The notes under the pieces: generated by a model
Told to the model about the DNA's origin: nothing
What the model saw: the letters and a program-made list of their open reading frames with translations, nothing else
Databases searched by the model: none
Source: Gammaproteobacteria bacterium
Lineage (GTDB): Bacteria > Pseudomonadota > Gammaproteobacteria > Pseudomonadales > Azotimanducaceae
Reading direction: 5' to 3'
Length of the DNA: 64,000 bases
Assembly (NCBI GenBank): GCA_005799745.1
Contig: SYFY01000120.1
Span: 24,126 to 88,125, forward strand
Shown here: positions 1-64,000 of the stretch, one piece after another
How positions within the stretch are numbered: the first letter of the stretch is position 1
Layout: every line of letters starts with the position of its first letter
Translations under genes and position numbers: made by a program

Positions 1-767
1 CACTCTTGAGAGGCACCAAACATTTCGGCACACAGACCAATACGTGCGACGTCGAGTGCGGGATCAAGCACCTCGGCACCCTTGTCAACGGAACCGATGG
101 CGGCATCGGCACCTACGCTCACGTTCTTCAGTCCAACTCGGGAAGCACTACGGCAATCGACGAGTTGCAGCGGGTTCACTGCGACACCGGCGGCCTTGCG
201 GTCCACCAGGAACAAGGTGATGCCATCGCGGCTGCCTGCGGCGCCGGAAGTCCGTGCTGCAACAATCAGCTTGTCAGCGACCTGGGCATCAAGTACGAAA
301 CTCTTCTGGCCATTTAACGTGTAACCACTTCCACTCTTTGTAGCGGTCGTCGCGATGTTATATGGCGCATGGCGATGGGATTCTTCGAGGGCGAGCGTCA
401 GCAGGAGCTCACCGGTTGCCACTTTCGGCAACAGGTCGGATTTTTGAGCTGCAGAGCCGCCGATATTGATGACCGTGCCGCCGACCCAGACCGTCGCATA
501 AAGCGGGCTCGCCACCAGGGTTCGACCGGTCTCCTCAGTAACCACACCAAGGCCCTTGTATCCGAAGGCCAAACCGCCATGTTCTTCCGCCCAGGGAATG
601 CTTGCCCAGCCGAGGTCCACCATGCTCTTCCACGTGGCACGGTCGAATCCGTCGGGATTCTTCTCATCACGCAGCTTGCGGAATTGACTGATCGGCGCCT
701 GATTCGTGCAGAAATCCTTGGCGCTGTCTTTGAGCATGGTTTGCTCTTCATTAAGGATCATCGGCAT
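1..767 (-). CDS. acyl-CoA dehydrogenase family protein, N-terminal part (3' end lies beyond the left edge of the window)
   Basis: Not in the ORF track because it runs off the window. My reverse-strand translation from the ATG at 767 reads MPMILNEEQTMLKDSAKDFCTNQAPISQFRKLRDEKNPDGFDRATWKSMVDLGWASIPWAEEHGGLAFGYKGLGVV...SGSGYTLNGQKSFVLDAQVADKLIVAART, the usual ACAD N-terminal/middle-domain layout. The + ORFs 6..317 and 369..911 are antisense shadows of it. Confidence 0.8.
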   Translation of the reverse strand, partial: MPMILNEEQTMLKDSAKDFCTNQAPISQFRKLRDEKNPDGFDRATWKSMVDLGWASIPWAEEHGGLAFGYKGLGVVTEETGRTLVASPLYATVWVGGTVINIGGSAAQKSDLLPKVATGELLLTLALEESHRHAPYNIATTATKSGSGYTLNGQKSFVLDAQVADKLIVAARTSGAAGSRDGITLFLVDRKAAGVAVNPLQLVDCRSASRVGLKNVSVGADAAIGSVDKGAEVLDPALDVARIGLCAEMFGASQE

Positions 768-1040
768 CGAAGGAATCCCCCATTCCACGTGAATGTACAG
801 GCCGACGATCAAACCAGAGTCACCCCCGGATGTCCACGCCAGGAGTCTGCGCGGCAGAAGGCAGCGGAGCGAGGCGAGGGTCAATTCGAGTACGATTTTT
901 CGTTCGCTTGAGGAGCATAGTGCGGGCTAGTCCCCCGATTACATGCGGGTTTACACCCTATACATCCCACCGGCGATAACAGCGTGGTCACGGCGCTACG
1001 ATCATTCCCGCACTACACCGACGGAATGGGGGGAAGCGCG

Positions 1041-1238
1041 ATGTACCGCACAACTGGAAGGCTCTTTACCTTTTTTACACTGCTCCTGGCAGCGGCTGGC
1101 GTGTACGCTGCCGAGGCACAAACGCTGGTGACACAAACAGCAGACTCAGGCGAGTGGTCAAACTTAATCGGCTTCGGCCTCGCAGCGCTCGGCATCACAG
1201 GGCTCATCCTGATTCGAACACAGTCGTCGCTGCTCTGA
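1041..1238 (+). CDS. small hypothetical exported/membrane protein
   Basis: Lies inside track ORF 984..1238. From the internal ATG it reads MYRTTGRLFTFFTLLLAAAGVYA/AEAQ (signal-peptide-like) and ends in the hydrophobic stretch GFGLAALGITGLILIR. A 7-bp hairpin follows at 1257..1274. No family recognised. Confidence 0.3.
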   Translation: MYRTTGRLFTFFTLLLAAAGVYAAEAQTLVTQTADSGEWSNLIGFGLAALGITGLILIRTQSSLL

Positions 1239-1335
1239 GCCGGGTTCCGTTGTAGGCGCGGTTTCCCAACCGCGACATTTACTCAATAAGTGCGAAGAAT
1301 CCCGACTTGGAAGTTGCTCCTACGGGAATCCTCGC

Positions 1336-1989: not shown

Positions 1990-2031
1990 TCTGCAAAGAT
2001 CTGCCGTCCATCAGTTAAGCCCCGTTTCTTC

Positions 2032-4071: not shown

Positions 4072-4085
4072 CCACCGGGTGACCA

Positions 4086-4859: not shown

Positions 4860-4914
4860 GCGCTTACGCTTTTGTTTACAGTCCGGTGATCTTCAAACCG
4901 CTGTGGAAAGACGC

Positions 4915-5750: not shown

Positions 5751-6713
5751 ATGGAGCTCAAGGAACACTCCGTGCAGGTGCGCGGCGTGAAGCTGCGTGT
5801 CTTTGATACCGGCGACGTTGGGGAGAGCACCTCGAGACCTGTGCTCTTGTTCCTCCATGGCATGCGCGACGCCGCAGCGAGTCTCTTTTCCATCGCCGCC
5901 CCTTTCGCAGATCGTTACCGAATCGTTCTACCAGAACTGCGCGGCCACGGTAGCAGCGACTACCCCAGTGCCTATTAGATGAAGAACTTCATCTACGACC
6001 TGTGGCGCGTACAGAACGATCACGTGGGGCGGCCTGCGGTCATCGTCGGCCACAGCCTTGGAGGTCAGATCGCATCTCGCTACGCAGCGGTGTTTCCAGA
6101 GACCATTGTGGGGCTGGTTTTGGTCGAAGGGCTTGGACCACCTGCCTTCCCGGAACCCGCGGACGAACACGCCTGGCTCAAGGGTTATCGCGAACGTCTG
6201 CTGACCCGCTTTGCAGATTCAGCGCCTGGCAGAGGCCTTGGCAACGTCGAATTCGCCACTTCTCGCCTGCTTGCCAACAACCCACGTCTCGATGCGGCAC
6301 GAGCACCACAGATTGCAGCTGCGCTCACCCGTCGCGATGACCAGGACAAGCTCGTCTGGGCTTTTGATTCTCACGCCGGCGCTGCGTTTGTACGCGCGGA
6401 CCGCGATGAGGGGGAATGATTTTGGAGTGCGGTGCCCTGCCCTACGCTCGTCATTAGTGGAGACCTCGCCCATGAATACTGGCGTGGCCAGTTCGGCAAT
6501 CTGCCGGGCTTTGACGGGCGATACAGGGAAGGTGAAATGGAACAACGGGCCGCCGTCTTTCCGCGCGGCGAACATTGCGCCTTTCACCATTCCGGGCATA
6601 TGGTGCACTACAACGAGCCGGAACGACTGATCGAGGAGATCGGTGCGTTCCTTGATAGATATACTTTTGCCTGCACGCCAACGGGCACACTGAGGGGAGT
6701 GCATCATGAGTGA
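5751..6713 (+). pseudogene. alpha/beta hydrolase interrupted by in-frame TAG (5976..5978) and TGA (6417..6419)
   Basis: Track ORFs 5751..5978, 5979..6419 and 6432..6713 share one frame (all starts are 0 mod 3). Joined, they give a roughly 320-codon alpha/beta hydrolase: LLFLHGMRD, RGHGSSD, nucleophile elbow GHSLGG, CPTLVISGD, catalytic His region SGHMVHYNEP. Confidence 0.75.
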
Positions 6714-9208: not shown

Positions 9209-9249
9209 TGCTCAATCCTCGATAGTTCCATTTGTATTCTGCCCCGCAA

Positions 9250-10489
9250 TCACACCGATAGGGAAACTACCGCCGTGGCAACAGTACCAATGGCGAGCAG
9301 CAGCACGTAGATGAATGAGCTGATTACAAACTTCACCGTGGTTTTGAAGAATCCCTGCCGATAGACCCGCTTCATGGCGAGCCACGGATAGAGAAAAAAC
9401 CAGGTCCACCAGAGCGCAATTACCCATCAGGGTACCGACGCCCATGCGGATCGAACCCATGGCACCATCGAGCATCCTGCGATCAACCCCAGAGTTAGGA
9501 AGTTAAACGCGTGCACATGCATAGAGTGGATCAGGTGTTCAACGTAGTAGCGCCCCGAACGTAGGTGCAAGATCTTCAGGATGAAAGCAAATACGGGCAA
9601 CAACATAAACATCATCACCGGCAGGTAGCCGATGGCTTTCTGCAGAACGTCTCGCTGATACTCGCCATCTCTGCCGAGCCGATGCAGATTGTTCGATGCC
9701 CGATCTTCCATCACTTTTAACCAACCAACCACTGTCATCGCTGGTCAGCTCAATGCGGTCGTCATCATCAACCTCCATTTCAAGCAACGGGCCCAGGCGA
9801 GATGCTGCGTTGTTCGGGTTCGTAACTGTTTTTGCGCCGGCCACCAGAGCACCGTCCGCCTGCCAGGCCACCAGCGCGAAGAAAATAATCGAGAGGAACA
9901 ACGTCATTCTTACCGGCGGCAGGTAGGTGGCGCGCCGACCCGCGAGATACTCGACCTTCAAAAATCCGGGTTTACCAATCAATGGCCAGATCGAGCTGAA
10001 AAGCCTCGAATCGAAGTTCAAGAAATCCCGTAAAAAATCGCCGATCAATCGATGAAAAGCGACGACACTGACGTTGTTGTCCTGACCACACGAAGCACAG
10101 AACTTGCCAGCGACACGTGCACCACCGTTGGGGCACTCGGTGACACTTTGGTTGCCTGCAGCGTCTGATGGTGTAGCGAGTTCACTCGCCGCGAGCAGGC
10201 GTCGCGTGATGACCTTACTGCCGTCGCCATAGCACGTTGCCAGGTCGCCAAGAAAGGAGGATTCCGATGCCGCGATCCAATCATCAAGTTCTGCTTCAGA
10301 CCGCACTCGGAACTGCAGCGCGAGGTGATGCCCATCTACCTTATTGGCGGTGGCATTGCGGTAGGCTCTACCACTTTCGAACCCTTCGTTCTCCAGGACT
10401 TGCCGAAGCAGGTTATCCAACCACGTGCCGGTATCGAGGGGTTGATCCGACGATGGTGTGATTTCTACTTCGTACAAAACCCCACTCAT
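9250..10489 (-). pseudogene. DUF3667-type zinc-ribbon membrane protein gene with one frameshift and one in-frame TGA
   Basis: Frame A (track ORF 9539..10489) carries the zinc ribbon CPNGGARVAGKFCASCGQ and the first TM. The family continues in another frame (track ORF 9427..9738: LPVMMFMLLPVFAFILKIL...YYVEHLIHSMHVHAFNF). After TGA 9427..9429 the same frame continues as WVIALWWTWFFLYPWLAMKRVYRQGFFKTTVKFVISSFIYVLLLAIG, ending at the stop at 9250..9252. Confidence 0.7.
9719..9730. repeat. (AACC)3 = (GGTT)3 tetranucleotide repeat at the DUF3667 frameshift site
   Basis: Seen directly. The coding strand reads agt GGTTGGTTGGTT aaaag. Removing one GGTT unit joins ...DDSGWL to KVMEDRASNNLHRLGRD... in frame. 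Confidence 0.8.
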
Positions 10490-18263: not shown

Positions 18264-18584
18264 TCAGGGATGAAGTGTGCCCAGTCGCAACGGTGGGTTG
18301 GCTACCGGCAGTCTGCCGTGATCTGCCCGATAGACCATCAGGAGTTCACGATAACGGGTGTGATACGCGGCGGTGGATTCAAACCGGAACTTCACCGCAG
18401 CGTCGACCTGCACAAACGCATCATCGATCGCACTGCGCAGCCCAAACAGACTGCGCGCGTCCGCAACGCCGATCAAAAGTACCTGACCTGATTCATCGGC
18501 CAGTTCAAAGACGCCGAGCTGGCCCGGCACACGCGCGACTTCACCGCGTGTACGCCAGGGCTTGTCAAGACGAAGTGACGTCAT
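18264..18584 (-). CDS. small hypothetical protein with GIY-YIG-like N-terminal motif
   Basis: PGQLGVFELADESGQVLLIGVADARSLFGLRSAI resembles the GIY...YIG...R core with Y replaced by F/L. 106 aa, downstream of the ThDP enzyme gene. Confidence 0.45.
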   Translation of the reverse strand: MTSLRLDKPWRTRGEVARVPGQLGVFELADESGQVLLIGVADARSLFGLRSAIDDAFVQVDAAVKFRFESTAAYHTRYRELLMVYRADHGRLPVANPPLRLGTLHP

Positions 18585-18599
18585 GAGTTGTGGACTACG

Positions 18600-18665
18600 C
18601 CTTCTTCTTCAGTGCTTTTTCGGTGCTTCTTCGGTTCTTCTTCGGTTCTTCTTCAGTTTTTCTTT
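18600..18665. repeat. six tandem 11-bp units (pyrimidine-rich on + strand, GAAGAAGAACC-like on - strand)
   Basis: Units read directly: ccttcttcttc / agtgctttttc / ggtgcttcttc / ggttcttcttc / ggttcttcttc / agtttttcttt. The array spans the stop codon of the ThDP enzyme gene and the spacer before ORF 18264..18584. Confidence 0.75.
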
Positions 18666-20290
18666 TTGGGCATGATGGAGATCTCCATGGGTTTGAAGTA
18701 CTCCATTTCCACATCGATGAGGTAAGGACCCTTCGCCGCCATGCCACGATCAACGGCGGCGGCGAACTCTTCCGGGCTCTTCACCCGCTCGCCGGGAACC
18801 CCAAGACTCTCGGCGAGCATCGCAAAGTTCATCTTGCCGATATCAGTTTCGTTGATACGGCCGAAACGTGTGTCTTGCAGCCAACGCAACACACCATATC
18901 CGTGATCGTTGAACACACACACGAGTAGCGGCAGTTGATATTGCGCAGCCGTGGCGAGTTCGGTGGCATGGAACATGAAGCCACCGTCTCCATGAACGAC
19001 GACGGTTTTCTTGCCGGTTGCAACCGCTGCACCTAAAGCAATCGGAAAGCCCGGTCCGATGGCACCTGAGGTCGGGTTCATCGACGTGCGCGGCTCGTAA
19101 ATCGGGAACAGCTGATTACCCCAGTTGTACGCCGAAATCGTCTGATCACGCACAAACAATCCATCACGTGGCAACGCGCTGCGCAGTTTGTCCATCACCT
19201 TCGGCCAATCGTCACCGAGGCGCTTACGCATCGCTTTGCGCAGCCCCTCACGCGAGGTCCACACCTTGTCATTGAACTGGGCATCGTTCCCCGATACGTC
19301 ACTGATGCGGCCAAGAATGGCTTCGATGGCGATCTTCGCATCCGCATGCACACCAAGATGGGCACGGTGTGTGCGGCCAATCATCGCCGGATCAATGTCG
19401 ATCTGAATGAGCTCGCCGGGTGGTGTCTGTTTTGCGAACTGGCCATCGACGCCGACGGCGAAACGTGTACCTATCGCAAGCGTGAGGTCCGCGTCACCAA
19501 TCGACTGATACATCCCGGCGCTGTTGTAGTAGTTGCCGACACAGAGCGCATGGTCTTCAGGCAGGCTGCCACGACCATCCACACTGGTGAGTACCGGGCA
19601 GTCGAGTTTTTCAGCGAGTGCTTTGAGCGCAGCACTCGCGCCTGCCGCGATCACACCACCACCCGCAACGATGACGCGACGCGACGATCGCTTGAGTTTT
19701 TCCGCGATCGCGTCGAACGCCGCGTCATTGCCAGGAAACTTAACCTGCCCCGGCTTTACAAAGACCGGGCGTGAGGTCTCGGCGTACTGCACATCAATCG
19801 GGATTTCCAGGGCGCCGGGCTGCGGTCGGCCGGTGAAAATGTCGTCCACAACCGCATTGAATGCATCGGCCAACTTATCAACGTGGCGTGGACTTTCAGC
19901 ACGGCGGCACACCGTACGCAACATCGGCAACTGATTCTCCGCTTCATGCACATAACCAAGCGCTTTGCCGTAAAACGCCGTCTCCGCTTGCCCGGTGATC
20001 ACTATCACACGCGAAGAACCGTATTGCGCTTCATAAAGACCCGTCACGGTATTGGTCGTACCCGGCCCGGTTGAGGCAATCATCACGCCGAGCTTTCCCG
20101 TCGCCCGCGAATAACCATCCGCCGCGTGAGTGCCCCCCTGTTCATGACGGACGTCGATGATCTTGGTCTTGCCGAGCCGGTTGATGGCATCAAATATAGG
20201 CATGTTGTGAATACTGACGATGCCGAACACATGTTCAACCCCGAGCGTTGCCAAGCCGTCGGCAATCAGATCTGCGCCGGTATAACTCAT
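18653..20290 (-). CDS. thiamine-diphosphate-dependent enzyme (acetolactate synthase large-subunit-like)
   Basis: N-terminal GADLIADGLATLGVEHVFG...HEQGGTHAADGYSR...STGPGTTN. ThDP-binding region GAIGPGFPIALGAA...HGDGGFMF. Confidence 0.9.
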   Translation of the reverse strand: MSYTGADLIADGLATLGVEHVFGIVSIHNMPIFDAINRLGKTKIIDVRHEQGGTHAADGYSRATGKLGVMIASTGPGTTNTVTGLYEAQYGSSRVIVITGQAETAFYGKALGYVHEAENQLPMLRTVCRRAESPRHVDKLADAFNAVVDDIFTGRPQPGALEIPIDVQYAETSRPVFVKPGQVKFPGNDAAFDAIAEKLKRSSRRVIVAGGGVIAAGASAALKALAEKLDCPVLTSVDGRGSLPEDHALCVGNYYNSAGMYQSIGDADLTLAIGTRFAVGVDGQFAKQTPPGELIQIDIDPAMIGRTHRAHLGVHADAKIAIEAILGRISDVSGNDAQFNDKVWTSREGLRKAMRKRLGDDWPKVMDKLRSALPRDGLFVRDQTISAYNWGNQLFPIYEPRTSMNPTSGAIGPGFPIALGAAVATGKKTVVVHGDGGFMFHATELATAAQYQLPLLVCVFNDHGYGVLRWLQDTRFGRINETDIGKMNFAMLAESLGVPGERVKSPEEFAAAVDRGMAAKGPYLIDVEMEYFKPMEISIMPKKKN

Positions 20291-36446: not shown

Positions 36447-37769
36447 AAGGGCGCGTCCTCGTTCTTGAAGAGCCAACCGATGCCTTTTTCCGGCCGCAAG
36501 CAGTCCAGCGCTGAGTTTCTGGCCCTCACGCAACAAGAGGTAGAAGCCGATTTCTGAGAAATTTTGAAGTCCGTTCCCGGTGCCCGCTTCACGATCGGCT
36601 TTGGTTATACCGGTGAAAAGCTCCAGCTCAATCTCACGGGAGATGATTCACATGCGCTGTCCCTTGCCGCTGAAAAGGTGATGGAAGAACTGCGTCAGAT
36701 CGAAGGCGTCGGTAACGTCATCTCGTCGGCGAGCTTGTTACGTCCAGAGATCATCATTCGTCCCGACTTTGCTGCAGCTGCAGAACTCGGTGTAAACGCC
36801 GCTGCCATCGGTGAAACCGTACAGGTCGCGACCGCTGGTGATTACACCGCTGCACTCGCGAAGCTCAATCTGCCGGAGCGTCAGGTCGATATCCGCGTGC
36901 AACTCCCGCTCGATTCACGCAAAGACCTCGAGACCATTCGCCAACTTCGAGTCCCTGGCAACAACGGACTTGTACCACTGTCTGCGGTCGCCGATGTCAG
37001 CGTTGGCTCCGGCCCTGCTCAAATCAAGCGATATGAACGCGCTCGTAACATTCAGATCGACGCAGAACTCGGCAAGATCCAGCTGGGCGACCTCTCCAAG
37101 ATGGTGGATACCCTGCCCGCTCTGCAGCATCTGCCCGCAGGCGTGCGCAAAGTGGAGGTGGGTGATGCGGAAAGGATGAAGGAAATGATGGGTGCGTTCG
37201 GCATGGCCATGGTCACCGGCATCCTTTGTGTGTTCATGGTGCTGGTGCTGCTGTTCAAGGACTTCATACAGCCAGTCACCATCCTTGCGGCGCTGCCGCT
37301 CTCAGTGGGTGGCGCGGTGATTGCGCTGCTCATTGCCAATGAACCTTTCAGCATGCCGGCGGTCATTGGCCTCGTAATGCTGATGGGCATCACTACCAAA
37401 AACTCCATCTTGCTGGTGGAGTACGCCGTAGTGGCGATGCGTGAACACGGCATGAACCTGCACGACGCCATGATTGATGCCTGCGGCAAACGCGCGCTCC
37501 CCATCATCATGACAACGCTCGCCATGGTGGCGGGCATGATGCCTGTAGCACTCGGACTAGATGCAGACACGAGCTTCCGCTCGCCCCTCGGGATTGTCGT
37601 TATCGGCGGCCTCATCACCTCAACGGTGCTGAGTCTGGTGGTGGTACCGGTGGTGTTCGAATACGTGGTGGCGCTGGAGAAGGTGCTCCGGCGATGGCTC
37701 CGGATTCCGGATCGCAAACACTACCCTGAGCTGGATGAGCCGATGCCCCCGGAGCCTGTGCGGGCCTGA
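36447..37769 (+). pseudogene. 5'-truncated RND efflux permease remnant (C-terminal ~40 percent only) with in-frame TGA 36555..36557
   Basis: Track ORF 36564..37769 begins in the periplasmic porter region (IPGARF-type: KSVPGARFTIGFG...LNLTGDD) and runs through the last five TM helices (GLVMLMGITTKNSILLVEYA...). The same frame is open upstream to the TAA at 36444 (..SAEFLALTQQEVEADF*EIL). About 650 N-terminal codons are absent. Confidence 0.8.
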
Positions 37770-38842: not shown

Positions 38843-38919
38843 TGGCGCGCCCAAAGGGACTCGAACCCCTAACCCCCAGGTTCGAAGCCTGGTGCTCTAT
38901 CCAATTGAGCTATGGACGC
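38843..38919 (-). tRNA. tRNA-Arg (anticodon TCG), CCA encoded
   Basis: The reverse strand reads GCGTCCA TA GCTC AATTGGATA GAGC A CCAGG CTTCGAA CCTGG GGGTT AGGGG TTCGAGT CCCTT TGGGCGC G CCA. Cloverleaf folded by hand, 77 nt. Confidence 0.9.
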
Positions 38920-38974
38920 GTGGGGCGGCAGTCTGACGAAGTCATGGATTATCGGCAACCGCCTTTGGAAATCT

Positions 38975-39376
38975 TCAACGCGTGACGACATCCCGATACA
39001 TCGGCGCCAACATGCTGAGCAGCTCATTGCGCGCTGCAACCGGGGTATGGGTAGCTTCCATGGCTTGCATCAAATCACCGACGACGACGTTGAACATCGC
39101 CGCGTCGATGTCGAGGCCTTTGTGGGATTCCGCCATGCTGCGTCCTTCGTAGGTACACGGGCCACCGGAAAGCGCACACAACTGATCGATCATGTGACCA
39201 CGAAAGGCATCTATGTCGGTGTCTTCAAACGACTTCGCCACACGCGGGTCATCACCGAGGTTGCCAATAAACGCATCTACGATCTTCTCAAGGCCCGCTT
39301 CACCATCGAGTTCGGCATAGAGCGTCGGCGCAGATTCGCGGGACGCACAACTTGTTGTCAGGAGAAGAAGCGCCAT
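38975..39376 (-). CDS. group 1 truncated hemoglobin, probable lipoprotein
   Basis: From the internal Met of track ORF 38975..39625: MALLLLTTSC (lipobox-like), then LYAELDGEAGLEKIVDAFIGNLGDDPRVAKSF...LSGGPCTYEGRSMAESHKGLDI. Confidence 0.8.
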   Translation of the reverse strand: MALLLLTTSCASRESAPTLYAELDGEAGLEKIVDAFIGNLGDDPRVAKSFEDTDIDAFRGHMIDQLCALSGGPCTYEGRSMAESHKGLDIDAAMFNVVVGDLMQAMEATHTPVAARNELLSMLAPMYRDVVTR

Positions 39377-39397
39377 CAAGCGTGGGAACCGAGGATT

Positions 39398-39787
39398 CTG
39401 CAGATGTTGCGAGTCGTAGAAATAACTGCCATGTGGTCCACAGGAAAAATCGGCGCCATCCGGGGTCCTATCGAAAACACCACCGAGCATGTGCGTCGTT
39501 GTGTGCAAAAGATCTACAGTCACGAACTCGTGAATCTGATTTTCGAACAACCCTACTGTCGAATCGCGAATGTCACAGAAGCGGGGCTCGCGAAACGTCA
39601 GACCGCCTCTCTCTATCTGAAACAACTCGTCGATGTTGGTGTGCTTGCTGAGGCGGCAACGTCAAAGGAAAAGTTGTTTGTACATCAGAAGTTCATGCGG
39701 TTGCTGACTCGCGAAAGCAACGAGCTTCAACGTTTTTGGCAGACGCTATTGACGATCGTCACGATCACCACATCAGCACACCTGTGA
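39398..39787 (+). pseudogene. Fic-family protein C-terminal remnant (Fic motif region absent)
   Basis: The last ~129 codons of track ORF 38912..39787 read LQMLRVVEITAMWSTGKIGAIRG...KIYSHELVNLIFEQPYCRIANVTEAGLAKRQTASLYLKQLVDVGVLAE...KEKLFVHQKFMRLLT. This is the C-terminal helical/winged-helix part of long Fic proteins. Upstream of 39398 the ORF is only the antisense of the globin gene and the tRNA. Confidence 0.7.
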
Positions 39788-47099: not shown

Positions 47100-47939
47100 T
47101 CAGCTCTCCGCCACCATCGTTCCTTCGATGTGACCGAGCTTGTCGATCTCTACCCGCATCACATCGCCGGCTTTAAGGAACTGTCGCGGATCCATCGCTG
47201 CGCCGATCCCACCGGGTGTACCCGTATACAGCACATCACCGGGTTCGAGTGTCATCCCCACGGAAAGGTGTTCAACCTGCAGCCAGGCGTTGAAGACAAG
47301 GTGTTTCGTATGTGAATCCTGGCGCTTCTCGCCGTTGACGAAACAGCGAATGCCTAATTGATGCGGGTCGCCCAGTTCATCCGCTGTGACAATCCACGGC
47401 CCGAACGGGGCGTGAGTATCGAAACTTTTGCCGAGGGACCATTGCGGCGATGCGTGTTGCCACATGCGCGCAGTCATGTCATTGCCGACGCAGTAACCAA
47501 AAACTGCGGCAGGCGCATCGGCCGCGCTGACCTGTTTGCCGCCCTTGCCGATGATCGCGACCAACTCGGCCTCGTAATCCGCGGAGAAGGTGGACTTCGC
47601 AATCTGGATGGGGGCATAGGGACCGTTCACGCTGGTCTGAGCCTTGGTGAACCACACCCGTCGCTCTGGCGTGCCCATTTCCGACTCTTCTATGTGATCA
47701 GCGTAGTTGAGGCCAATGGCGAAAATCTTGCCGGGGCGTTGCACCGGCGCTTCAAGCTGCACCGATGACAATGGAACATCGCTCGCTGTTTTCGCCTTCG
47801 CTTCGAAAGCGGGTTTGAGCGCGTCCCAATTGCGGATCAGATCGATCATCGACCCGTCTACGCCGGTGTCGATGATCGTGTTGTCGACGACGATGCCAGT
47901 GCGCGTCTGGCCATTGGCGGTATACGTTGCAAGCTTCAT
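47100..47939 (-). CDS. fumarylacetoacetate hydrolase (FAH) family protein
   Basis: KIFAIGLNYADH, ADYEAELVAIIGK, PGDVLYTGTPGGIG. Confidence 0.9.
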   Translation of the reverse strand: MKLATYTANGQTRTGIVVDNTIIDTGVDGSMIDLIRNWDALKPAFEAKAKTASDVPLSSVQLEAPVQRPGKIFAIGLNYADHIEESEMGTPERRVWFTKAQTSVNGPYAPIQIAKSTFSADYEAELVAIIGKGGKQVSAADAPAAVFGYCVGNDMTARMWQHASPQWSLGKSFDTHAPFGPWIVTADELGDPHQLGIRCFVNGEKRQDSHTKHLVFNAWLQVEHLSVGMTLEPGDVLYTGTPGGIGAAMDPRQFLKAGDVMRVEIDKLGHIEGTMVAES

Positions 47940-49006
47940 GTCTTTGTTCCCCTAGAATCGGATGAGAGTGAAGCAGCTGAGAGTGAAGCAGATGAGAAAA
48001 ACCGTTTGATTCGCAGCACCAACGCCACGAGATAAGAAATCACGCCAACGGGCGGCTTCACTCGTCCGCTCATCGCGGGATGTGGACTTCCCCACTGCAC
48101 CGCAAGCAAGGAACTCAGCGGCATTTTTTGTGGCGCATCGGCGCTCGTGAGGAGATCGCCGTCGGTCCAATGTTCGAGCTCATTGCCAAACGGGTCTTTC
48201 CAGTAGTCAAAATCTGACTGCCCATAATTTGCCGACCAACACCCCAGACGGCTTTACGCTGGCGCGTCTGCAGGTATGGATGACCCAGCATGAGATCGTC
48301 GAGATTGGCCACTTCAAACGCTGCATGTGCGAGTCCTGGCGCCCCCGGCAACTCAGCCAGAAACAGCGTGTGGTGATCCGCCGGTTTGTCACCACGATCA
48401 CAGCGCATGAATGCACCGATGGGCGCATCCTTCGCCGCTTCAACCTCATCAGAGGTGATGAAACCGAACCGTTCCTTGTACCACTTCTCGCTTAAGCGGA
48501 AATCACTCACCTTAAGCACCGCGTGGCCGATGCGGTGCACATGGGAAGGTGAAGGTTCGAGCCGAACACTGGAGCGCAATCTTGATCGTGATGCTACGGT
48601 GTTACGAAGTGGATCAGGTCGCAGCACAGCCGCTTCGGTCTTTGTCTGCGCCGCGACAATCTCGAGGCGATAACCGTCAGGATCAGCCAATCGGACAACC
48701 TTGCCACCACCAGGTTCTTGCAAGTCTTCGACGGCCACACCTTCGTGGCGAGCCAGGCGCTCGAGGTCATCAACGGTCTGCGCACGGAGGCCAAACCCGA
48801 GGAACTTTGCCGTCCCCATCTCGGTGGCACCGATGTCGAGTTCGCTCCTCTCCCCCACCATTTGCCAGGAGTTCAACCCCTATATGTTCTGCGTTCATCC
48901 GGTGCCGATGGCCATGAACATACCGATCCGTGAGCTTTTTCGTCGTGAGCTTTTTCGCATCGGTCTTGAAGCCATGGAGCACGCGCCTCACGTATGCTGC
49001 TCGCAC
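47936..49006 (-). pseudogene. VOC-superfamily (extradiol-dioxygenase-like) gene with frameshifts and N-terminal stops
   Basis: Track ORF 48115..48876 (...HRIGHAVLKVSDF...DHHTLFL...HAAFEV...WGVGRQIMGSQI) continues after a 1-nt loss in the T-run 48209..48212 as FDYWKDPFGNELEHWTDGDL...LLAVQWGSPHP (track ORF 47936..48124). Upstream of 48876 the same frame has TAG 48880..48882 and TGA 48895..48897. Confidence 0.7.
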
Positions 49007-53883: not shown

Positions 53884-55527
53884 ATGATTGCAAGATTGCC
53901 TGCTCCACCACTGTCCCTGTCCTGCCTGCTTCTCGCCGGCACCGCCATGGCTTCAAGCCACCGGGAAGCGCCATTCATTACCAAGTTTCCGCAAGTGGAC
54001 GCTACTGACTTCTATCTGTTCAGCAGTTATGAACCCGGTCGCGATGGGTATGTTTCACTGATCGCCAACTATCAGCCGATACAGGCCGCCTATGGCGGGC
54101 CGAACTACTTTCCGCTGGACAGTGAAGCGCTCTACGCGATCCGGATCGACAACGATGGAGACAGTGTTGAAGACCTAACGTTCCAGTTCCGCTTCCGGGA
54201 CGTGCAGCCCTCGGGCAGTGCAGTCAAGCTGAACGTCAACGGCACTGAGATCTCCTCGGTACTCCGCAACATCGGTCCAGTCACCGCTGAGCGCGCGCCG
54301 GGTCTCAGCTTTCTTGAGACGTTTACGGTGAAGGTAGTCCGTGAGGGTCAGTCCACGAGCGGCGAGGATGTCATCAATACAGCTACTGGCTCCGTGACCT
54401 TCAATAAGCCCTTCGACTACGCCGGCACCAAGACCTTTGGTGGTGCAGGAAATTATGAAACCTATGCGAACACCTTCATTCAGGAGGCAAACATCCCTGG
54501 CTGTTCGATGCCGGCTAAAATCTTTGTTGGTCAGCGGAACGAAGCCTTCAAGATCAGCGTCGGTGAGGTGTTTGATCTGGTCAATCTCGTGCCAATAGAA
54601 GGGGACAGTGCTCCCGGTGCTCGCGATGGCCGGGGTTTTCCAGGTGGTATCACGCAGGACCCTCTGAGGAACAATCTTGCGCGGGCGAACGTCACGTCAA
54701 TCGCGATGGAAGCACACAAGAGCTGCCTCACGTCACGCTCGGAGCCTGTTATCGGCGCGTGGACCACCGCCAGCCTGCGTCAGGTTTCGGTGCTCAATCC
54801 CCGCGCAACGTTTCAGCGACCGGAGGTGACCGGCGGAGCCTTTGTTCAGGTATCACGTCTGTCGACCCCGCTGGTGAATGAACTGGTGATCGGTTTCGAT
54901 CAGAAAGACCGTTTCAACGGCAGCAGGCCGGCAGATGATGGGCAATTTCTGCCGTTTGTGACCAACCCCGGATCGCCGCTCATTCTCAACCTGCTCTTTC
55001 GGGATGCAGTAAACACAACGCTCAACGCCAATATCCCGAACCTTGCACCGAAGAACTTTCCTCGTAACGATCTCGTCACCACATTCCTCACCGGTTTTCC
55101 AGGCCTTAACAAGCCTGCCAACGTAGTACCCGGCGAAATGTTGCGTCTGAACACGGCAGTCGCCCCAAGGCTTCGTGCAGCACAGAGTCCGTTTGGTGTT
55201 GCCGCTGGTGACATCGCCGGATTTCCCAACGGACGACGACCCGGGGACGATGTGGTGGACATCGCGCTGCGGGTGGTCATGGTGTTATCCGCTACCGATT
55301 GGTGCTGGCGGAAGTCCTGTAGCACTTGGACTGTGTCATGTGGTCGGGTCGCACGCGTGAAGGCGCCGCAATCTTCGACGAAGTCGCAGCGCTCGATACG
55401 CAAGGCAACGCCTGGGACACCGAAGTACTCGGCTGGTATCCGTACGTCGAGTCATTGTCGATTCGATCCGTTGCGCATGGGTGGATGGGGCGGATCGCAG
55501 AAGCGCAGGACTTTGTCGAACGGCTGA
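53884..55527 (+). CDS. DUF4331 domain protein, apparently 3'-truncated (family similarity ends near 55280)
   Basis: Signal peptide, then SSHREAPFITKFPQVDATDFYLFSSYEP...IRIDNDGDSVEDL...GFPNGRRPGDDVVDIALRVV. The remaining ~80 codons are Cys/Arg/Trp-rich and overlap another gene's frame. Confidence 0.7.
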   Translation: MIARLPAPPLSLSCLLLAGTAMASSHREAPFITKFPQVDATDFYLFSSYEPGRDGYVSLIANYQPIQAAYGGPNYFPLDSEALYAIRIDNDGDSVEDLTFQFRFRDVQPSGSAVKLNVNGTEISSVLRNIGPVTAERAPGLSFLETFTVKVVREGQSTSGEDVINTATGSVTFNKPFDYAGTKTFGGAGNYETYANTFIQEANIPGCSMPAKIFVGQRNEAFKISVGEVFDLVNLVPIEGDSAPGARDGRGFPGGITQDPLRNNLARANVTSIAMEAHKSCLTSRSEPVIGAWTTASLRQVSVLNPRATFQRPEVTGGAFVQVSRLSTPLVNELVIGFDQKDRFNGSRPADDGQFLPFVTNPGSPLILNLLFRDAVNTTLNANIPNLAPKNFPRNDLVTTFLTGFPGLNKPANVVPGEMLRLNTAVAPRLRAAQSPFGVAAGDIAGFPNGRRPGDDVVDIALRVVMVLSATDWCWRKSCSTWTVSCGRVARVKAPQSSTKSQRSIRKATPGTPKYSAGIRTSSHCRFDPLRMGGWGGSQKRRTLSNG

Positions 55528-56185
55528 CGGCGCGCATTCGTCGTCCACGCCAGGATACGGATCTGAGTTCTGCCGCATGCGACCGCTGGTTCCTGTGTTT
55601 TACGCTCGGCGACGCGGAACGCGCGATGGACTACGCCCATGAATCGCTGCGACTGGCCGAACGATTCGGCTCGGAGAGCAAGATCGTCTACGCACTCATG
55701 ACGTGTGGCCTGACCAGCAGTCTCGGGCTGCGCTGGCAGGAGGGTGTGGGCTATCTGCAACGAGCCCGACAACTGATCGCCGGCAGCGGCGCCGGCGCCG
55801 AGTGGCGCATCTTCATCGACCCCGTCCTCGCGCTCTGCCTCGCCGGATCGGGTGATCACGAACAGAGCGTTGCGCTTGCCCGGGAGAGCTTTGCACGTAC
55901 CCCCGAGAATCTGCACATGCAAGTCTGTATCCCTCTCACTCGCGCGTGGCGGGTGGACTCTCCTGTGAAGCAGAGATCGACGCCGTCATCGACGCCATGC
56001 TCCATGCCATGCAGAAGGCTGATACCTTCGGCTGGTTACCCCTCATCCTGCTCGAACGAGCGGGACTTTCGCGGCTGCGTGGCGACATGGAAGGCATGCG
56101 ACGGGATCTTGCGGAGGACAGGCAGCGGCTCGTGGAGATGAACGTGACGGGATGGGAGGACTACGCGAGGTCGATCGAAGGCTGA
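55272..56185 (+). pseudogene. TPR-type C-terminal remnant of a large regulatory (STAND/cyclase-like) protein
   Basis: Frame of track ORF 55326..56141 (AIFDEVAALDT...AEAQDFVERL...AMDYAHESLRLAERFG...GYLQRARQLIA), with in-frame TAG 55320..55322. Shifts near 55.9 kb into track ORF 55946..56185 (LLERAGLSRLRGDMEGMRRDLAEDRQRLVEMNVTGWEDYARSI). Confidence 0.5.
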
Positions 56186-56253: not shown

Positions 56254-56640
56254 CTAGCATTGGCAGGCCAGCGTTTCGCGATCACCCATCGCGGCAAAGT
56301 GATCGCTGATTTCCTTTCCAGCGATACCAGTCAGAGTCTGGACGCCAAGGCGGTAATCGAAAGCTCCCAGAAATTCCTTCTTGCCAATCCGGTCACGGTA
56401 CAGCGGAACGGAATCGTCAGGAGGGAGCGCTCGATCATACTGATCGCCTTCACAGGAAAATGTCCGTGGAAGGCTCTTCCCCGTGAAAGGTATCGAATCG
56501 ACCTGTGCTTTTTCGAACGTGAGAATCAGCTCCAGGATGCCGAGCATGATGCCGGGTTGTTGCTGGAAAGAACTTTTCGGGGGCATAGGCAAAGGACTTG
56601 GATCGATCCAGCCGTAGTTCCCGCGGACACTGCCATCCAT
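56254..56640 (-). CDS. unassigned ORF, possibly part of a longer decayed gene
   Basis: Natural-looking composition, unlike its R-rich + strand shadow (56152..56691). The same frame stays recognisably coding upstream across TAG 56680..56682 and TAA 56896..56898. Confidence 0.3.
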   Translation of the reverse strand: MDGSVRGNYGWIDPSPLPMPPKSSFQQQPGIMLGILELILTFEKAQVDSIPFTGKSLPRTFSCEGDQYDRALPPDDSVPLYRDRIGKKEFLGAFDYRLGVQTLTGIAGKEISDHFAAMGDRETLACQC

Positions 56641-57122
56641 TCGGGTCGAGATTCGCGGAGACCCAGCGCAGAGGCAGCACTAAGCCCCTGATACGAACTC
56701 GACGCTGCCGCCGACAGGAAAACGCCCTTCGGCACACTCCATCATGGCGATATCTTCGTGTTTGCTCAGGATGAAGGCATCGGCGCCTGGTTCATAACCT
56801 TCGCCTGGAATGCGATGCACCGGTGCCTCGGCATGGAGGTTGTTGCAGGCTTCGCACCAATGTCCCTGTACGCCCGGCGAGAAGAGATCGACGCGTTAGC
56901 GGGCATGCGGACTTCGCATGGCGCCGGCGTTGATGCATCGGTAACGCCAGTGGGGTCCGGTGCTACTCTGCAGACAATTCTCGGATCGCCGTGGACGATC
57001 GACGTACGTGGTCCCTACACTACGGGCAGGAGTCCAATTGCGTGGTAGCGACGGGATCAGGGTGTGTAGCACTCACCGTCATCGACTGCGACAGAATCAC
57101 GATGTTGATCGGGAGGAGAATC

Positions 57123-57347
57123 ATGCGTCTAAGGCACGCCTACAGCGGCTACATCTACGAATCTACCGACGACGCTCACGTCAAGGTGAGTGATCCAAAG
57201 ACCGGACGATCCGGGCTCTTTACGCCCGACGCCAAGTGGGTATCGGGTGACCTCACCTATGCCGACCACCACATGATCGGCCACATTGGTGGCAAAACGG
57301 CCGAAGGCGCGACGTCCCTCGGTGCGTTCTCTCGTCGTCGCGGGTGA
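57123..57347 (+). CDS. small hypothetical protein (74 aa)
   Basis: The ATG at 57123 follows a strong Shine-Dalgarno GGGAGGAG (57111..57118). Its stop overlaps the ferredoxin GTG start (GTGA). Confidence 0.6.
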   Translation: MRLRHAYSGYIYESTDDAHVKVSDPKTGRSGLFTPDAKWVSGDLTYADHHMIGHIGGKTAEGATSLGAFSRRRG

Positions 57348-59378: not shown

Positions 59379-59633
59379 GTGACTGTAAAGACAACCCTCG
59401 ATATCAAAGATGAGTTGTTGGTGAGTGCGAAAAAACTGGCGGAGAGCACCGGGCATACTCGACGGTCGGTGGTCGAAGAGGGATTGCGACGGGTTCTATC
59501 GAATCGGCTCAACCTCCCCTGTTTTGTTCTAGACGACTGCAGCGTCGGCACGACAGGTGGTGTTGACCCCCGCGAATCGTTGAGCTGGCAACATCTTCGT
59601 AAGGAAATCTATGGAGAGCCCGTTCGTCGATGA
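59379..59633 (+). CDS. vapB: type II antitoxin, VapB-like
   Basis: MTVKTTLDIKDELLVSAKKLAESTGHTRRSVVEEGLRRVL. ATGA overlap with the PIN-domain frame. Confidence 0.7.
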   Translation: MTVKTTLDIKDELLVSAKKLAESTGHTRRSVVEEGLRRVLSNRLNLPCFVLDDCSVGTTGGVDPRESLSWQHLRKEIYGEPVRR

Positions 59634-60145
59634 TCACTGTCGACTCCAACGTACTAGTCTACGCGCATCGCCGGGGATCCCGTTTCCACGAGCGCTGGCA
59701 CGACGTCGTCCACGCGCTCGCTGAAGGACGTGAACGCTAGGCAATACCCTCGCCGTGCCTTCACGAATTTTTCAGAGTGGTGACCCACCCACGCATTTGG
59801 AAACGTGAAGCCAGTTAGTCGGTTGCTGCCGGCAAACAGATCCACGCATGGATGAGCTCGCCAACACTAATGATGGTGAACGAGAACGACATGTTCGCAG
59901 AGGTCCTGCTGCCCATGATCCAGCAGCCGCGAGTGCGTGGACCCATTGTCCATGACGCTCGAATCGCCGCGTTGTGCCTGGAACATGGTGTCGGCACCGT
60001 CGATGGCGTGCACGAACTCCTCTTCAACACCGCCGAGGATCAATCGGAACACCAGGACCATTCAATGACCAACATTCCGATGCTGGTGGAGTTTCGAAAA
60101 CTCCTGAACGACTGGGAGGCGAGTATCGCAGCCGCACCTTCATAA
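59630..60145 (+). pseudogene. vapC: VapC (PIN-domain) toxin gene with two in-frame TAG codons (59738..59740, 59816..59818)
   Basis: One frame reads MITVDSNVLVYAHRRGSRFHERWHDVVHALAEGRER*AIPSPCLHEFFRVVTHPRIWKREAS*SVAAGKQIHAWMSSP...IVHDARIAALCLEHGV. The 3' part is also divergent, so the end is uncertain. Confidence 0.7.
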
Positions 60146-60155
60146 ACGGACAGCA

Positions 60156-60834
60156 CTACGCCATCCGCGACCTCGCCACGGCCTTGATCTCTTCGATAAA
60201 GGCTGTGGCCCCCATCGCGCCCGTGACTTGTCCCGCAAGCTCGGGACCTGCAAGTTCCGGCCGACCAGAACCGTACGGTGGCTCCGGCGCGTACTCGAGG
60301 AAGAGCTCAACCATACGTCCGTAGTCATCGCCTGCGAGTGTGCCGATCAGCGATAGCCCGACATCAATGCCCGCTGTCACCCCACCACCCGACATACGAT
60401 TGCGATCGATCACCACACGCTGATTGCAAGGCGTCGCACCAAACTCTGCGAGCTGATCCCGCACCGCCCAATACGACGAGGCGCGATAACCCTTGAGCAG
60501 TCCTGCCGCACCGAGGATCAACGATCCCATTCAGACACTGACTAACCATTTTGTTCTGGCGCCGCGATCAGCAAAAAAAGGCCATGGCGGCATCGTCTTT
60601 CATCACATCGAGCGTCGCTTGGGCGGCACCACCAATAATCAGAATGTCAGGGTCTGCAAACGCGTTCGCGAACGAATGGGACGCCACCAGTTGCAAGCCA
60701 TTGTCAGAACGCACGGGACCTGCGTCTTTCCACACAGTCTGAATCTCAGCGCCCGGCAAAAAGCCGAGTGCCTGCATCGGACCAACCAGGTCGAGGGCTG
60801 TCATGCCGGGAAAAAGTACTGCAATGATTTTCAT
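60156..60834 (-). pseudogene. DJ-1/PfpI family gene with a homopolymer frameshift and TGA at the nucleophile-Cys position
   Basis: Track ORF 60568..60834 (MKIIAVLFPGMTALDLVGP...ILIIGG) and 60156..60530 (GSLILGAAGLLKGYRASSYW...SGGGVTAGIDV...EYAPEPPY) join via the A7/T7 run 60573..60579. The intervening frame reads ADRGARTKWLVSV*MGS, with TGA 60531..60533 where the family has Cys. Confidence 0.75.
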
Positions 60835-60866
60835 TTGAGTTGACTCCGTTGATTAGAAAAAGAGGT

Positions 60867-62264
60867 TCAGCGCCCCGGTGGGATATTCGCGTTCATTCTG
60901 AAGAGGTTATCCGGATCGTATTTCGCCTTGATGTTTCGCAGCCGCGCATATTTCGCCCCGAATGAAGCACGCACCGCTTCGGGTTTGTCATCCAGCGCCG
61001 CATGGTTGAGATAAGTCGATCCATTGAGGTGACCTTCCATCGCACTCCACAGCTCTTTCAACCAACTGATGTGGTGTGCACTCTCGGACGGCTCTGCCCA
61101 TTGGCCGATGACGTCGATGTCCCATTGAGGCTTACGTACACCGAAGGCCATCGCCGCTGGATCCACCCGGCTGATCGCCCCGTGCAGATAGAACATCAAT
61201 AGTGCGCTCATCGGTGAACTGAATCGGCCGGCGCCGTCGACCATCACATCAATCAGCGCATCCGACAACTGTTCGGTAAACGCGGACCGCCAATAACGTT
61301 GCAGTCCATGCACCGCGTTGGGCTCATCCAGCTGCACCTGACGTTGGCCGTACGACATCGCGGTCACCGTGTCGGCAACGGGTCGTCCAAACGCTCTCAC
61401 TGGCGCCATCACCTTCTGACCTTCGGCTATCGGACCGTTGTAACCGACCATCAAACCCAGGAGCGGCATGCCGTCGGGCGACGTCAATAAGCCGCAGTTG
61501 ATTTCCGCGGCGTCTGGCAACGTTGGACAGACATCACGATAGAAACGCAGTACCTCTTTCGCTGCCGCAAGGGGGTGCAACACGAGACCACCCAACACTT
61601 CGCCTACCGCGTGCAATTGATACTCGAACTCAGTCACGACCCCAAAGTTCCCGCCACCGCCACGAATGGCCAAGAAGAGATCCACGTATTCGGTAGAGCT
61701 CGCCGTTCGGATTTCACCGTCAGCGGTGACGACGCGGGCGCCAATGAGGTTATCGACCGTTGCACCATACAAACCGCTCAACCAACCGATGCCACCACCG
61801 AGGGTCAATCCTCCAATGCCTGTATTGGAGACAGTGCCTCCCGTCGTCGCGAGCCCGTGGACTTGTGTGGCGTTGTCAAACTCGTTCCACAACGCGCCCC
61901 CTTCGGCGCGAGCGGTGCGGCGGATTGGATCAACGCTTACGGCTCGCATCCGGGTGAGGTCAATCACCAGACCACCATCATTGACGCCGTAACCCGCCGC
62001 GCTATGACCGCCACCGCGTACCGAGGTAACCAATGAATGTTCGCGAGCGAAGGTGACGGCCTACCGAACATCCGCGGCACAGGTGCAACGAACAATCAAA
62101 CCTGGGCGACGATCCACGTTGCCGTTCCAGACTCTACGTGCGGAAGCGTAGTCGGCATGTGTCGGAGTAATCAGCTGGCCTTTGAGCTGTCGGCGCAATG
62201 TCGGTACGGCGGAGTCGCCGACGAGACGATGTCCACCGTCGCGAGATGTCAGATTCATCATCAA
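60867..62264 (-). pseudogene. FAD-linked (BBE/PCMH-type) oxidase gene with one in-frame TAG (62061..62063)
   Basis: Track ORFs 62061..62264 (...YASARRVWNGNVDRRPGLIVRCTCAADVR*) and 60867..62033 (..VTSVRGGGHSAAGYGV...) share one frame, 10 codons apart. C-terminal ...YDPDNLFRMNANI is typical of the family. Confidence 0.75.
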
Positions 62265-62405
62265 CCTGTACAGGCGGCTTCAAGCCGCGAGGCATTCAAA
62301 GCTAACACAACCCCCACAAAGGGCTCAGCGGTAAGGACGAGACCGCTGTAAGCTGCACAACATTACTCCTCGAACTCTCCAAGCGCCTGAGGCGCCAAAT
62401 CTTCC

Positions 62406-63773
62406 ATGTTGTTTTCCGAACTGAGCCTGAGCGCCGAGCTCGCCCAAGGTATTGCCGACGCCGAGTTTATCGAAATGACGGCGGTGCAAACTGCCTGCGT
62501 CCCGACCATCTTGTCCGGAGGCGACGTCATCGCCCAGGCACATACCGGCAGCGGTAAAACCGTGGCCTTGGCCTTGGGGCTTCTGGCAGCGCTGGATCGC
62601 ACCAAAGACACTGTGCAGGGCCTTGTTTTATGTCCGACCCGTGAACTCGCGGATCAGGTCAGCCGGGAAATCCGTCGCCTCGCCCATGCCATCCCCAACG
62701 TGAAAGTGTTGACCTTGTGTGGCGGCGTACCTTTGCGCCCCCAACTGGTGTCGTTATCGCAGCTACCCCACATCGTGGTCGGTACACCGGGACGTATTCA
62801 GGACCTCATCGAGCGTCAGGCCCTGCCCCTCAAAACCGTGAAGGTTTTGGTGCTCGACGAAGTGGATCGCATGCTCGACATGGGTTTCGCCGAGATCATC
62901 GAAACGGTGGTCAACGTGATACCGAAGCAGCGCCAGACCCTGCTCTTCTCCGCCACCATTCCTCCGGATATCCGCACCATCAGTCGCCGCTTGCAGCGGG
63001 ACCCACTCGATGTGTGCATCGAAGGTGAAGACACGCGGCCGCTCATCGATCAACGTTTTTTTAGCGTCGAAGTTGAACAGAAATTTCCCGCGTTGCGGGC
63101 GCTGTTACTCGAATTCAAGCCGGAGTCGGCGGTGGTGTTTTGCAACACCCGCGAAGCTGTTCGGGGTGTCGCCGCAGAACTTCATCGGCAGGGGTTCGCC
63201 GTGCTGTCATTGCACGGCGAGCTCGATCAACGGGAGCGCGAGGAGATGCTGGTGCGATTCGCGAATCGAAGTTGCAATGTGTTGGTCGCCTCCGATGTGG
63301 CTGCGCGGGGATTGGACATCGCCGATCTCGCCATGGTGATCAACTACGACCTTGCGAATGACGCCGATACCCACCTACACCGCATCGGCCGAACGGGGCG
63401 TGCGGGACGAAGTGGTCATGCGTTGAGCCTCTGTTCGAGTGCTGAGTCTGGTCGGCTACGCGCGATTGCCGACGTCATCAAGTCGCCGTTTCAATGGGGA
63501 CAACTCACAACGCCTTCCGGTCTTCCAACGCCTGCACCGTTCGTCACCCTGGTGATTGATGCGGGTCGTCAGGACAAACTCCGCCCTGGTGATGTGCTCG
63601 GCGCACTCACGGGCACCACCGGTCTTAAAGCCGCGGCCATCGGCAAGATCGACGTTTTTGCATCTCGCACCTATGTGGCGATCGAACGTAAAGCGGTGGA
63701 GAAGGCACTGAAGGGTTTACGCGCTGGCAAAATCAAAGGTAGAACCTTCCGTGTACGTGAGCTTGAAATCTGA
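62406..63773 (+). CDS. dbpA: ATP-dependent RNA helicase DbpA
   Basis: Q-motif/motif [32 protein letters not shown], plus the C-terminal DbpA RNA-binding domain ([15 protein letters not shown]...IGKIDVF). Confidence 0.85.
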
Positions 63774-64000
63774 TGTCTGATTTTGCAGCGACCGGGCTCA
63801 ACCCTGCGGGACAGTGGGCGGCATCAGCGCGCGGATATGCCACACCCACCGCCGTACAACTCGCGGCGATCCCGGCGATTCTCGAAGGGCGCGATGTGTG
63901 GGCCTGCGCGCAAACCGGCTCTGGTAAAACCGCGGCATTTGCGCTGCCGATCATCGAACGTTGTGCTGCGCATGAAGCCGGCCACCCGCTTCTGGCGCTG
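63773..64000 (+). CDS. second DEAD-box helicase, N-terminal part (continues beyond the window)
   Basis: My translation: [61 protein letters not shown]. The start overlaps the dbpA stop as TGATG. Confidence 0.8.

Follow-up and report, generated by a model that had tools for sequence, protein, structure and literature searches.

We analysed a 64,000-nucleotide stretch of DNA (the window) from an uncultured, freshwater-type gammaproteobacterium assigned to Azotimanducaceae (GenBank assembly GCA_005799745.1, contig SYFY01000120.1, positions 24,126 to 88,125 of the forward strand), in which 11 of the 61 protein-coding loci (18%) are decayed. All 11 are real pseudogenes or gene remnants, and the decay is of an ordinary type but unusually dense locally. 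The remaining 50 protein genes are intact, with normal family lengths and codon usage, and one tRNA gene is present in addition. An original prediction, made from the sequence letters, had put the damage at roughly 10–12 of about 60 loci among intact neighbouring enzymes, and the count agrees with it. Its claim of a high load over the window stands as far as local density is concerned, but the distribution proved to be patchy.

A stop codon by itself is uninformative, since every open reading frame (ORF) is bounded by stops. A lesion was therefore accepted when both flanks of a stop or frameshift matched one protein family or, better, one intact orthologue, and the read-through or frame-joined reconstructions were compared with Pfam, solved structures, large protein collections and orthologous DNA. 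The sequence was read over the window and 13 kb of its flanks (about 77 kb). The decayed loci are as follows (lengths in amino acids, aa, are given in the text below):

5751–6713 (+): locus A, alpha/beta-hydrolase pseudogene with in-frame stops TAG 5976 and TGA 6417
9253–10489 (−): locus B, DUF4286-DUF3667 membrane-protein pseudogene with a frameshift, TGA 9427 and a Cys-to-Gly change
36558–37769 (+): locus C, surviving 3′ end of an RND efflux-pump gene, coding for roughly the final 36% of the protein (ACR_tran profile 654–1018 of 1021)
39404–39787 (+): locus K, Fic-family remnant with the SoFic-like C-terminal domain only (SoFic-like_C profile 2–76 of 76)
47975–48829 (−): locus D, VOC/catechol-dioxygenase-like pseudogene with a 5′ truncation and a −1 frameshift
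53884–55335 (+): DUF4331 pseudogene that lacks 8 bp at 55281/55282 and ends in a 3′ breakpoint at 55335
55338–56185 (+): locus E, remnant of a large AAA_16-TPR regulator (its C-terminal ~290 residues), frameshifted at ~55.94 kb
56503–56946 (−): locus F, cytochrome P450 relic with N-terminal, late and C-terminal pieces in two frames
59630–60145 (+): locus G, VapC (PIN) toxin pseudogene with TAG 59738 and TAG 59816
60156–60834 (−): locus H, DJ-1/PfpI (isocyanide-hydratase-like) pseudogene with a T7 frameshift at 60573–60579 and TGA 60531
60867–62279 (−): locus I, FAD-linked oxidase (FAD_binding_4 and BBE) pseudogene interrupted by TAG 62061 some 72 codons from the N-terminus

Homology continues on both sides of the disruption in loci A, B, D, E, F, G, H, I and DUF4331. 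Seven genes (A, B, D, DUF4331, F, G and H) carry at least two independent hits, so their inactivation took place long enough ago for further hits to follow. Intact counterparts in a single ORF exist elsewhere for B, D, DUF4331, F, H and I, and the idea that the split ORFs are normally separate genes does not hold, as they are single genes in the homologues.

Intact genes occupy 73.6% of the window bases and decayed loci 15.6%, and nothing could be assigned to 10.8%; the long unassigned gaps of the window were checked for more relics, and nothing protein-like was found. Typical free-living bacteria have 1–5% pseudogenes and a coding density of about 90% (PMC3899985). For 11 or more decayed loci out of 61, P = 2e-4 if the baseline is 5% and P = 0.04 if it is 10%, and on this basis the local pseudogene load is truly high. 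Two decayed loci are located at 5.7–10.5 kb, none at 10.5–36.4 kb, two at 36.4–39.8 kb, one at 48 kb and six at 53.9–62.3 kb. Since the lesions lie in patches, chiefly at 53.9–62.3 kb, the load is not uniform over the window. No decayed loci were found in the left flank, 8 kb beyond the window. In the right flank, a relic of a luciferase-like monooxygenase was observed about 2.1–2.7 kb past the window end (contig L001, ~18500–19090); its N-terminus (MKFGAFLAPFH...WFGEHHS) and C-terminus (SYELIARHVFP...) are in different frames, and the middle is gone.

Lesions of the individual loci

Every triplet and repeat listed in the original prediction was found at its position on one or the other strand. 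Eight of the 13 in-frame stops proposed there are verified lesions (5976, 6417, 9427, 56896, 59738, 59816, 60531 and 62061). Three are not lesions, as the triplet at 55320 is out of frame and those at 48880 and 48895 lie upstream of the 48829/48830 breakpoint. The last two were assigned to neither group: the stop at 36555 stands ahead of the alignable RND sequence, and that at 56680 stands between P450 pieces in different frames. All four proposed frameshifts, at (GGTT)3 (9719–9730), at T4 (48209–48212), at T7 (60573–60579) and near 55.94 kb, were borne out, as were the remnants of RND, Fic, DUF4331 and TPR genes. In addition, several loci proved to be disrupted chiefly by deletions that the prediction had not included, namely the 8-bp deletion and the 3′ breakpoint of DUF4331, the 5′ truncation of the VOC gene and the loss of about 260 codons from the P450 gene.

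The read-through translation of locus A gives one Abhydrolase_1 stretch (residues 30–290, profile 1–245 of 245), which spans both stops. The reconstruction of locus B is covered to 99–100% by intact homologues of 412–466 aa. Its frameshift consists of one surplus GGTT unit, and the homologues read SGWLK..EDR through the junction. Opposite TGA 9427, 15 of 23 homologues have Gly. The zinc-ribbon Cys of the CPNCG motif is kept in all 23 DUF3667 homologues and is replaced by Gly in the window (CPNGG, 10120–10135); this missense change at an invariant residue fits relaxed selection following inactivation.

Locus D has lost its first ~51 codons at the breakpoint 48829/48830, and its T-run contains four T residues in place of the five required by the frame of the orthologue. 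Residues 54–258 of this orthologue (P0134, 339 aa, 83% identity) correspond to 48825–48211, and residues 255–332 correspond to 48223–47990 in another frame. The alignment with PDB 3b59 crosses the same junction. Among the 120 best-scoring matches listed (of 3860), nearly all VOC homologues are exactly 339 aa long. Nucleotide homology to the orthologous VOC-FAA hydrolase operon (L112) covers 48829–47107 only. The neighbouring FAA-hydrolase gene (47100–47939, −) is intact (88% identity to its orthologue); the orthologous pair of FAA-hydrolase and VOC genes overlaps by 4 bp in its operon. With its upstream VOC partner dead and 5′-truncated, the FAA-hydrolase gene of the window may no longer have a promoter or be translationally coupled.

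The DUF4331 pseudogene matches the Pfam profile over 1–388 of 421, and its orthologue P0010 is intact (514 aa, 93% identity). DNA alignment to the orthologous locus L108 (86% identical) shows the 8-bp gap and the end of homology at 55335. Past this breakpoint, the last ~48 DUF4331 codons and the two downstream genes are gone, and the TPR remnant starts. The TAG at 55320 is read out of frame in CCT-GTA-GCA (Pro-Val-Ala), and the intact 86%-identical orthologue carries the same TAG (CCT-GTA-GCx).

The frameshift of locus E is located at a CGCGCG/TGGCGGGTGG tract near 55935–55950. Homologues P0253–P0260 are unbroken across the junction, and P0263 has AAA_16 upstream. In frame 0, the codon-usage score of the locus falls from +0.24 to −0.47, where frame 2 scores +0.27; codon usage thus changes frame at this point.

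Locus F was identified solely by an exhaustive representative search, in which it matched P450 N-termini; Pfam and PDB gave no match, nor did the relic resemble the P450 encoded beyond the window. The homologues P0077 and P0128 carry the p450 domain, and the intact P450s are 446 and 451 aa long. Three pieces could be placed: residues 23–82 at 56892–56713, residues 344–373 at 56686–56597 and residues 415–441 at 56583–56503. Some 260 codons are absent, as is the heme-loop region, and the relic shows two or more deletions, frame changes and one stop. This stop, TAA 56896, is within the N-terminal piece, and its column is Glu in 11 of 25 homologues (a plurality only). TAG 56680 falls between pieces in different frames, at a deletion/frameshift junction.

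In locus G, the PIN profile (1–104 of 120) and the VapC43 structure (7vwo, 1–121) both span the two stops; the C-terminus is degenerate and has no family match left. Locus H matches the DJ-1_PfpI profile over 1–163 of 165 in one stretch. The structure 3ewn aligns unbroken over the T7 junction, and comparison of ITSVCSGSL with LVSV*MGSL places TGA 60531 at the nucleophile Cys. TAG 62061 of locus I is spanned by the FAD_binding_4 profile (2–138 of 139), and 77 metagenomic homologues are unbroken there. In a metagenome scan with the FAD oxidase, the closest match had 49% identity, and for this reason no syntenic intact copies of G, H and I were obtained.

Loci C and K are truncated remnants. The RND chains of the PDB align to locus C from about residue 660–680 on, and nothing aligns upstream of TGA 36555, which sits 7–12 residues upstream of the start of RND homology. 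At locus K, the Fic domain itself gave no match in Pfam. A 291-aa ORF at 38912–39787 (+) is this C-domain remnant lengthened by an antisense reading of an intact truncated-globin gene (38975–39376, −); the codon-usage score of the globin frame is 0.37 versus 0.17 for the extension. The 291-aa ORF is called in some public assemblies only, the sequence being the same and the gene calls differing.

Two further features belong to the surroundings of these loci:

38843–38919 (−): tRNA-Arg(TCG), found by ARAGORN and Rfam
59379–59633 (+): VapB-type antitoxin ORF (VapB_antitoxin, E = 2.4e-4), apparently intact, upstream of the dead toxin

The tRNA-Arg gene lies between two remnants, with the RND remnant within ~1.1 kb on one side and the Fic remnant 0.5 kb away on the other. 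Contigs L026 and L027 of two other assemblies (ERZ27257035 and GCA_005801925.1) both terminate at 38883, inside this gene. Contig ends in a tRNA gene flanked by remnants suggest a strain-variable junction or an island boundary. No attachment-site (att)-like repeat of tRNA-Arg of at least 13 nt was found in the window.

Four ORFs without a family, all annotated as genes in the public assembly, overlap relics in other frames or on the other strand: 9212–9460 (−, 82 aa), 55452–55922 (−, 156 aa), 56254–56640 (−, 128 aa) and 62037–62351 (+, 104 aa). They are probably spurious calls, which now seed protein clusters.

Reality of the lesions and explanations of the decay

The lesions come from a metagenome assembly, and three of the frameshifts are at short repeats, which would speak for an artefact; the original prediction had named resequencing as a check. 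The 1.285-Mb MEGAHIT contig k141_300118 (ENA ERZ27257033) spans all 64,000 bases at 99.99% identity, with about 8 single-nucleotide polymorphisms (SNPs) and no indels, and reproduces every lesion. SNPs at 16937, 16947, 23102, 41239, 45399, 46140, 50497 and 55824 are the sole differences between the window and the other assemblies, and they do not fall on any lesion. Shorter contigs of ERZ27257035 and of NCBI GCA_005801925.1 match the window where they overlap it, each with its own SNPs, which gives at least three distinct consensus sequences. All fragment proteins were found verbatim in NCBI, ENA and Logan assemblies. Thus, the disruptions are real in the DNA, being reproduced between assembly consensus sequences over the whole window. 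Assembly error as the source of the lesions is ruled out, because separately assembled contigs that differ by SNPs show no indels, because every fragment recurs in the three collections, and because consensus errors cannot delete hundreds of codons, as are missing from several loci. Also, none of the repeats is long (T4, T7 and three GGTT units), and substitutions occur in these genes as well. That the stops and indels are consensus errors, notably at homopolymers, is therefore hardly credible.

Recoding or switching, i.e., stop reassignment, readthrough, selenocysteine at TGA, programmed frameshifting or phase variation, was weighed as another explanation. TGA 60531 replaces a catalytic Cys, which is a classic position for Cys/Sec exchange, and frameshifts coincide with repeats. 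However, the intact genes end in TGA (31), TAG (10) and TAA (8), and the lesions use all three stops. Because all three codons terminate intact genes, recoding is excluded, and the readthrough that the original prediction had proposed to test finds no support. The DJ-1 gene is frameshifted ~40 nt upstream of TGA 60531, so selenocysteine insertion would not rescue it, and no selenocysteine insertion sequence (SECIS) or other RNA family accompanying the lesions was detected by Rfam. Phase-variable contingency loci resemble the present case in that three frameshifts are at a tetranucleotide repeat or homopolymer runs. In contrast to such loci, the tracts are far shorter (3 units, T4, T7), stops and truncations occur as well, there is no length polymorphism between assemblies, and further, irreversible lesions are present in these genes. 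A phase-variable switch does not fit these loci, and we regard this whole group of explanations as exceedingly improbable.

In our opinion, it is probable that the loci are real pseudogenes and relics which have reached fixation in an uncultured aquatic gammaproteobacterial population and were produced by the neutral decay of dispensable accessory genes. Ordinary mutation would strike such genes, and selection would leave the damage in place. The processes would include point nonsense mutations, slippage at short repeats (a GGTT unit gained, one T lost from a T-run, a T7 run altered in length), the loss of a few bases (8 bp) and much larger losses of hundreds to thousands of bases. The genes hit encode a toxin, a Fic protein, an RND pump, a P450, a dioxygenase-like VOC protein, an FAD oxidase, an isocyanide-hydratase-like protein, a hydrolase, a regulator and two DUF proteins, functions of a sort that bacteria can often do without. 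Once inactivated, each gene would drift neutrally and gather more lesions, its removal by deletion being so far partial. The lesions, their anatomy and their recurrence between assemblies are shown, while relaxed selection, neutrality and the age of the lesions are inferred. Loss of function is suggested by the sequence, as the catalytic Cys of H, the heme loop of F and two thirds of the protein in C and E are lost. Pseudogenes accumulate where selection is weak (PMC5447742), and the pattern agrees with the known dynamics of bacterial pseudogenes (PMC3899985, PMC5447742, PMC6054270); the phenomenon is of a known kind.

The source of the DNA is in line with an aquatic bacterium. The G+C content of the window is 55–61%, and TonB-dependent receptors and many catabolic enzymes are encoded. 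The nearest genomes are metagenome-assembled genomes (MAGs) of uncultured aquatic Pseudomonadales from lakes, glacier-fed streams and seawater, some of them labelled Azotimanducaceae or K189A clade. In the single conserved gene compared, the Rieske oxygenase, the relatives show at most 92% amino-acid identity. A G+C content of 57% and the many pseudogenes had pointed to Mycobacterium leprae as a candidate source, which was rejected in view of the TonB-dependent receptors and of the aquatic Pseudomonadales MAGs among the relatives. Synteny between the window and the relatives is confined to the Rieske operon, and their loci (L002–L023) are usable as intact references at 57.1–59.1 kb only. The decay patches lie where synteny with relatives is missing, and this suggests that they belong to flexible or accessory portions of the genome; the suggestion is based on the lack of synteny together with the two assemblies that break inside tRNA-Arg.

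Directly upstream of the ferredoxin-Rieske oxygenase pair, a 74-aa ORF without a Pfam family was observed (57123–57347, +), with 70–94% identity across all 15 related loci (L002–L016). Based on this conservation, it is probably a real uncharacterised part of the Rieske operon.

Several points weigh against neutral decay in flexible regions as set out above. The independent assemblies may have some read sets in common, though their consensuses differ by SNPs. The idea of flexible regions relies on non-synteny with relatives at no more than ~92% identity (in one gene) and on two contig breaks, and neither an integrase or transposase nor an att repeat turned up to support it. Loss of function is read from sequence, and some fragments, such as the 388-aa FAD oxidase ORF, the 401-aa RND piece or the 127-aa Fic C-domain, could still be translated.

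The other explanation to be weighed is genome-wide reductive evolution, in which a small effective population size, a lifestyle change, host restriction or a mutator/repair defect would have led to ~15–20% pseudogenes throughout the genome. The intact coding fraction of 74% and the 18% of decayed loci, against the typical ~90% and 1–5% (PMC3899985), speak for it, as does the luciferase-like relic 2–3 kb past the right edge. The population is highly clonal (SNPs at ~1e-4 across assemblies) and yielded a 1.285-Mb contig, and the three polarisable stops are compatible with G:C-to-T:A changes. On the other hand, 26 kb (10.5–36.4 kb) and the 8-kb left flank are lesion-free. No insertion sequence (IS) elements or transposases occur in 77 kb, although IS expansion is usual in early erosion (PMC5447742); among the called genes and Pfam hits over this region, there was no transposase or integrase. 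The relatives from lakes, streams and seawater suggest a free-living lifestyle, and the three polarised sites are without statistical weight. Considering both sides, we hold genome-wide erosion to be possible but rather doubtful, and local neutral decay is preferred.

The original prediction had guessed the ancestral codon at three sites and read two of them as C/G-to-T/A transitions. Its Cys at 60531 was confirmed by the 3ewn alignment; Trp at 59738 is not verifiable, as VapC43 has Leu at that position, and neither is Arg at 36555, which is outside the alignable homology. The transition reading is not supported, since the polarisable stops (Cys 60531, Gly 9427 and Glu 56896) point to transversions, all three compatible with G:C-to-T:A. 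Polarisation is firm at Cys 60531 only, Gly 9427 (15/23) and Glu 56896 (11/25) being the likeliest ancestors. Three sites are too few for inferring a mutational spectrum, a repair defect or a mutator. As a separate observation, the eight SNPs between assemblies comprise four transitions and four transversions, three of them G/T; the share of transversions is high, and the number is too small to interpret.

Comparison with known systems and significance

The decay resembles the early reductive evolution of Mycobacterium leprae, Sodalis glossinidius and Serratia symbiotica SAp in the many disrupted genes with multiple lesions per gene (PMC3899985, PMC5447742), in the lowered intact coding (74% here), in the mix of nonsense mutations, frameshifts and deletions, and in the intact metabolic genes interspersed among the damaged ones. 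Unlike in these bacteria, the decay here was shown for one 64-kb window, is patchy and is free of IS elements, and the relatives look free-living and aquatic. There is also a likeness to the decay of dispensable or failed horizontally acquired genes in free-living bacteria, namely accessory targets, non-syntenic regions by a tRNA gene, and small as well as large deletions (PMC3899985, PMC6054270). In contrast to the free-living background of 1–5%, kept low by deletional bias, the local density is several-fold higher (P = 2e-4 at 5%), and old multi-hit relics persist here instead of being promptly deleted.

For annotation, these results mean that 11 loci of the MAG should be marked as pseudogenes. 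Several public gene calls at these loci are fragments or artefacts that seed protein clusters: the hydrolase (locus A) is split into 68- and 146-aa fragments and the DJ-1 gene (locus H) into 124- and 88-aa fragments, locus C is called as a 401-aa "RND" protein, the DUF4331 pseudogene as a 547-aa protein, and the P450 relic is represented by the 128-aa ORF. The luciferase-like relic of the right flank is likewise annotated as a 95-aa gene in a public assembly.

As it stands, the window is a well-documented, ordinary case of gene decay. It is rather improbable, in our estimation, that the window is representative of the genome. If so, this would be a free-living aquatic gammaproteobacterium in early drift-driven erosion, with ~15–20% pseudogenes, ~75% intact coding and no IS expansion, and maybe with a G:C-to-T:A bias of the oxidative type. 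Such a density throughout the genome of a free-living planktonic lineage would be an example of pseudogene-rich, IS-free erosion outside a host, and the relics would serve as neutral sites for measuring the mutational spectrum of the lineage. A representative window would thus offer a rare snapshot for the debate on drift versus streamlining in the genome reduction of free-living bacterioplankton (compare PMC10837832).

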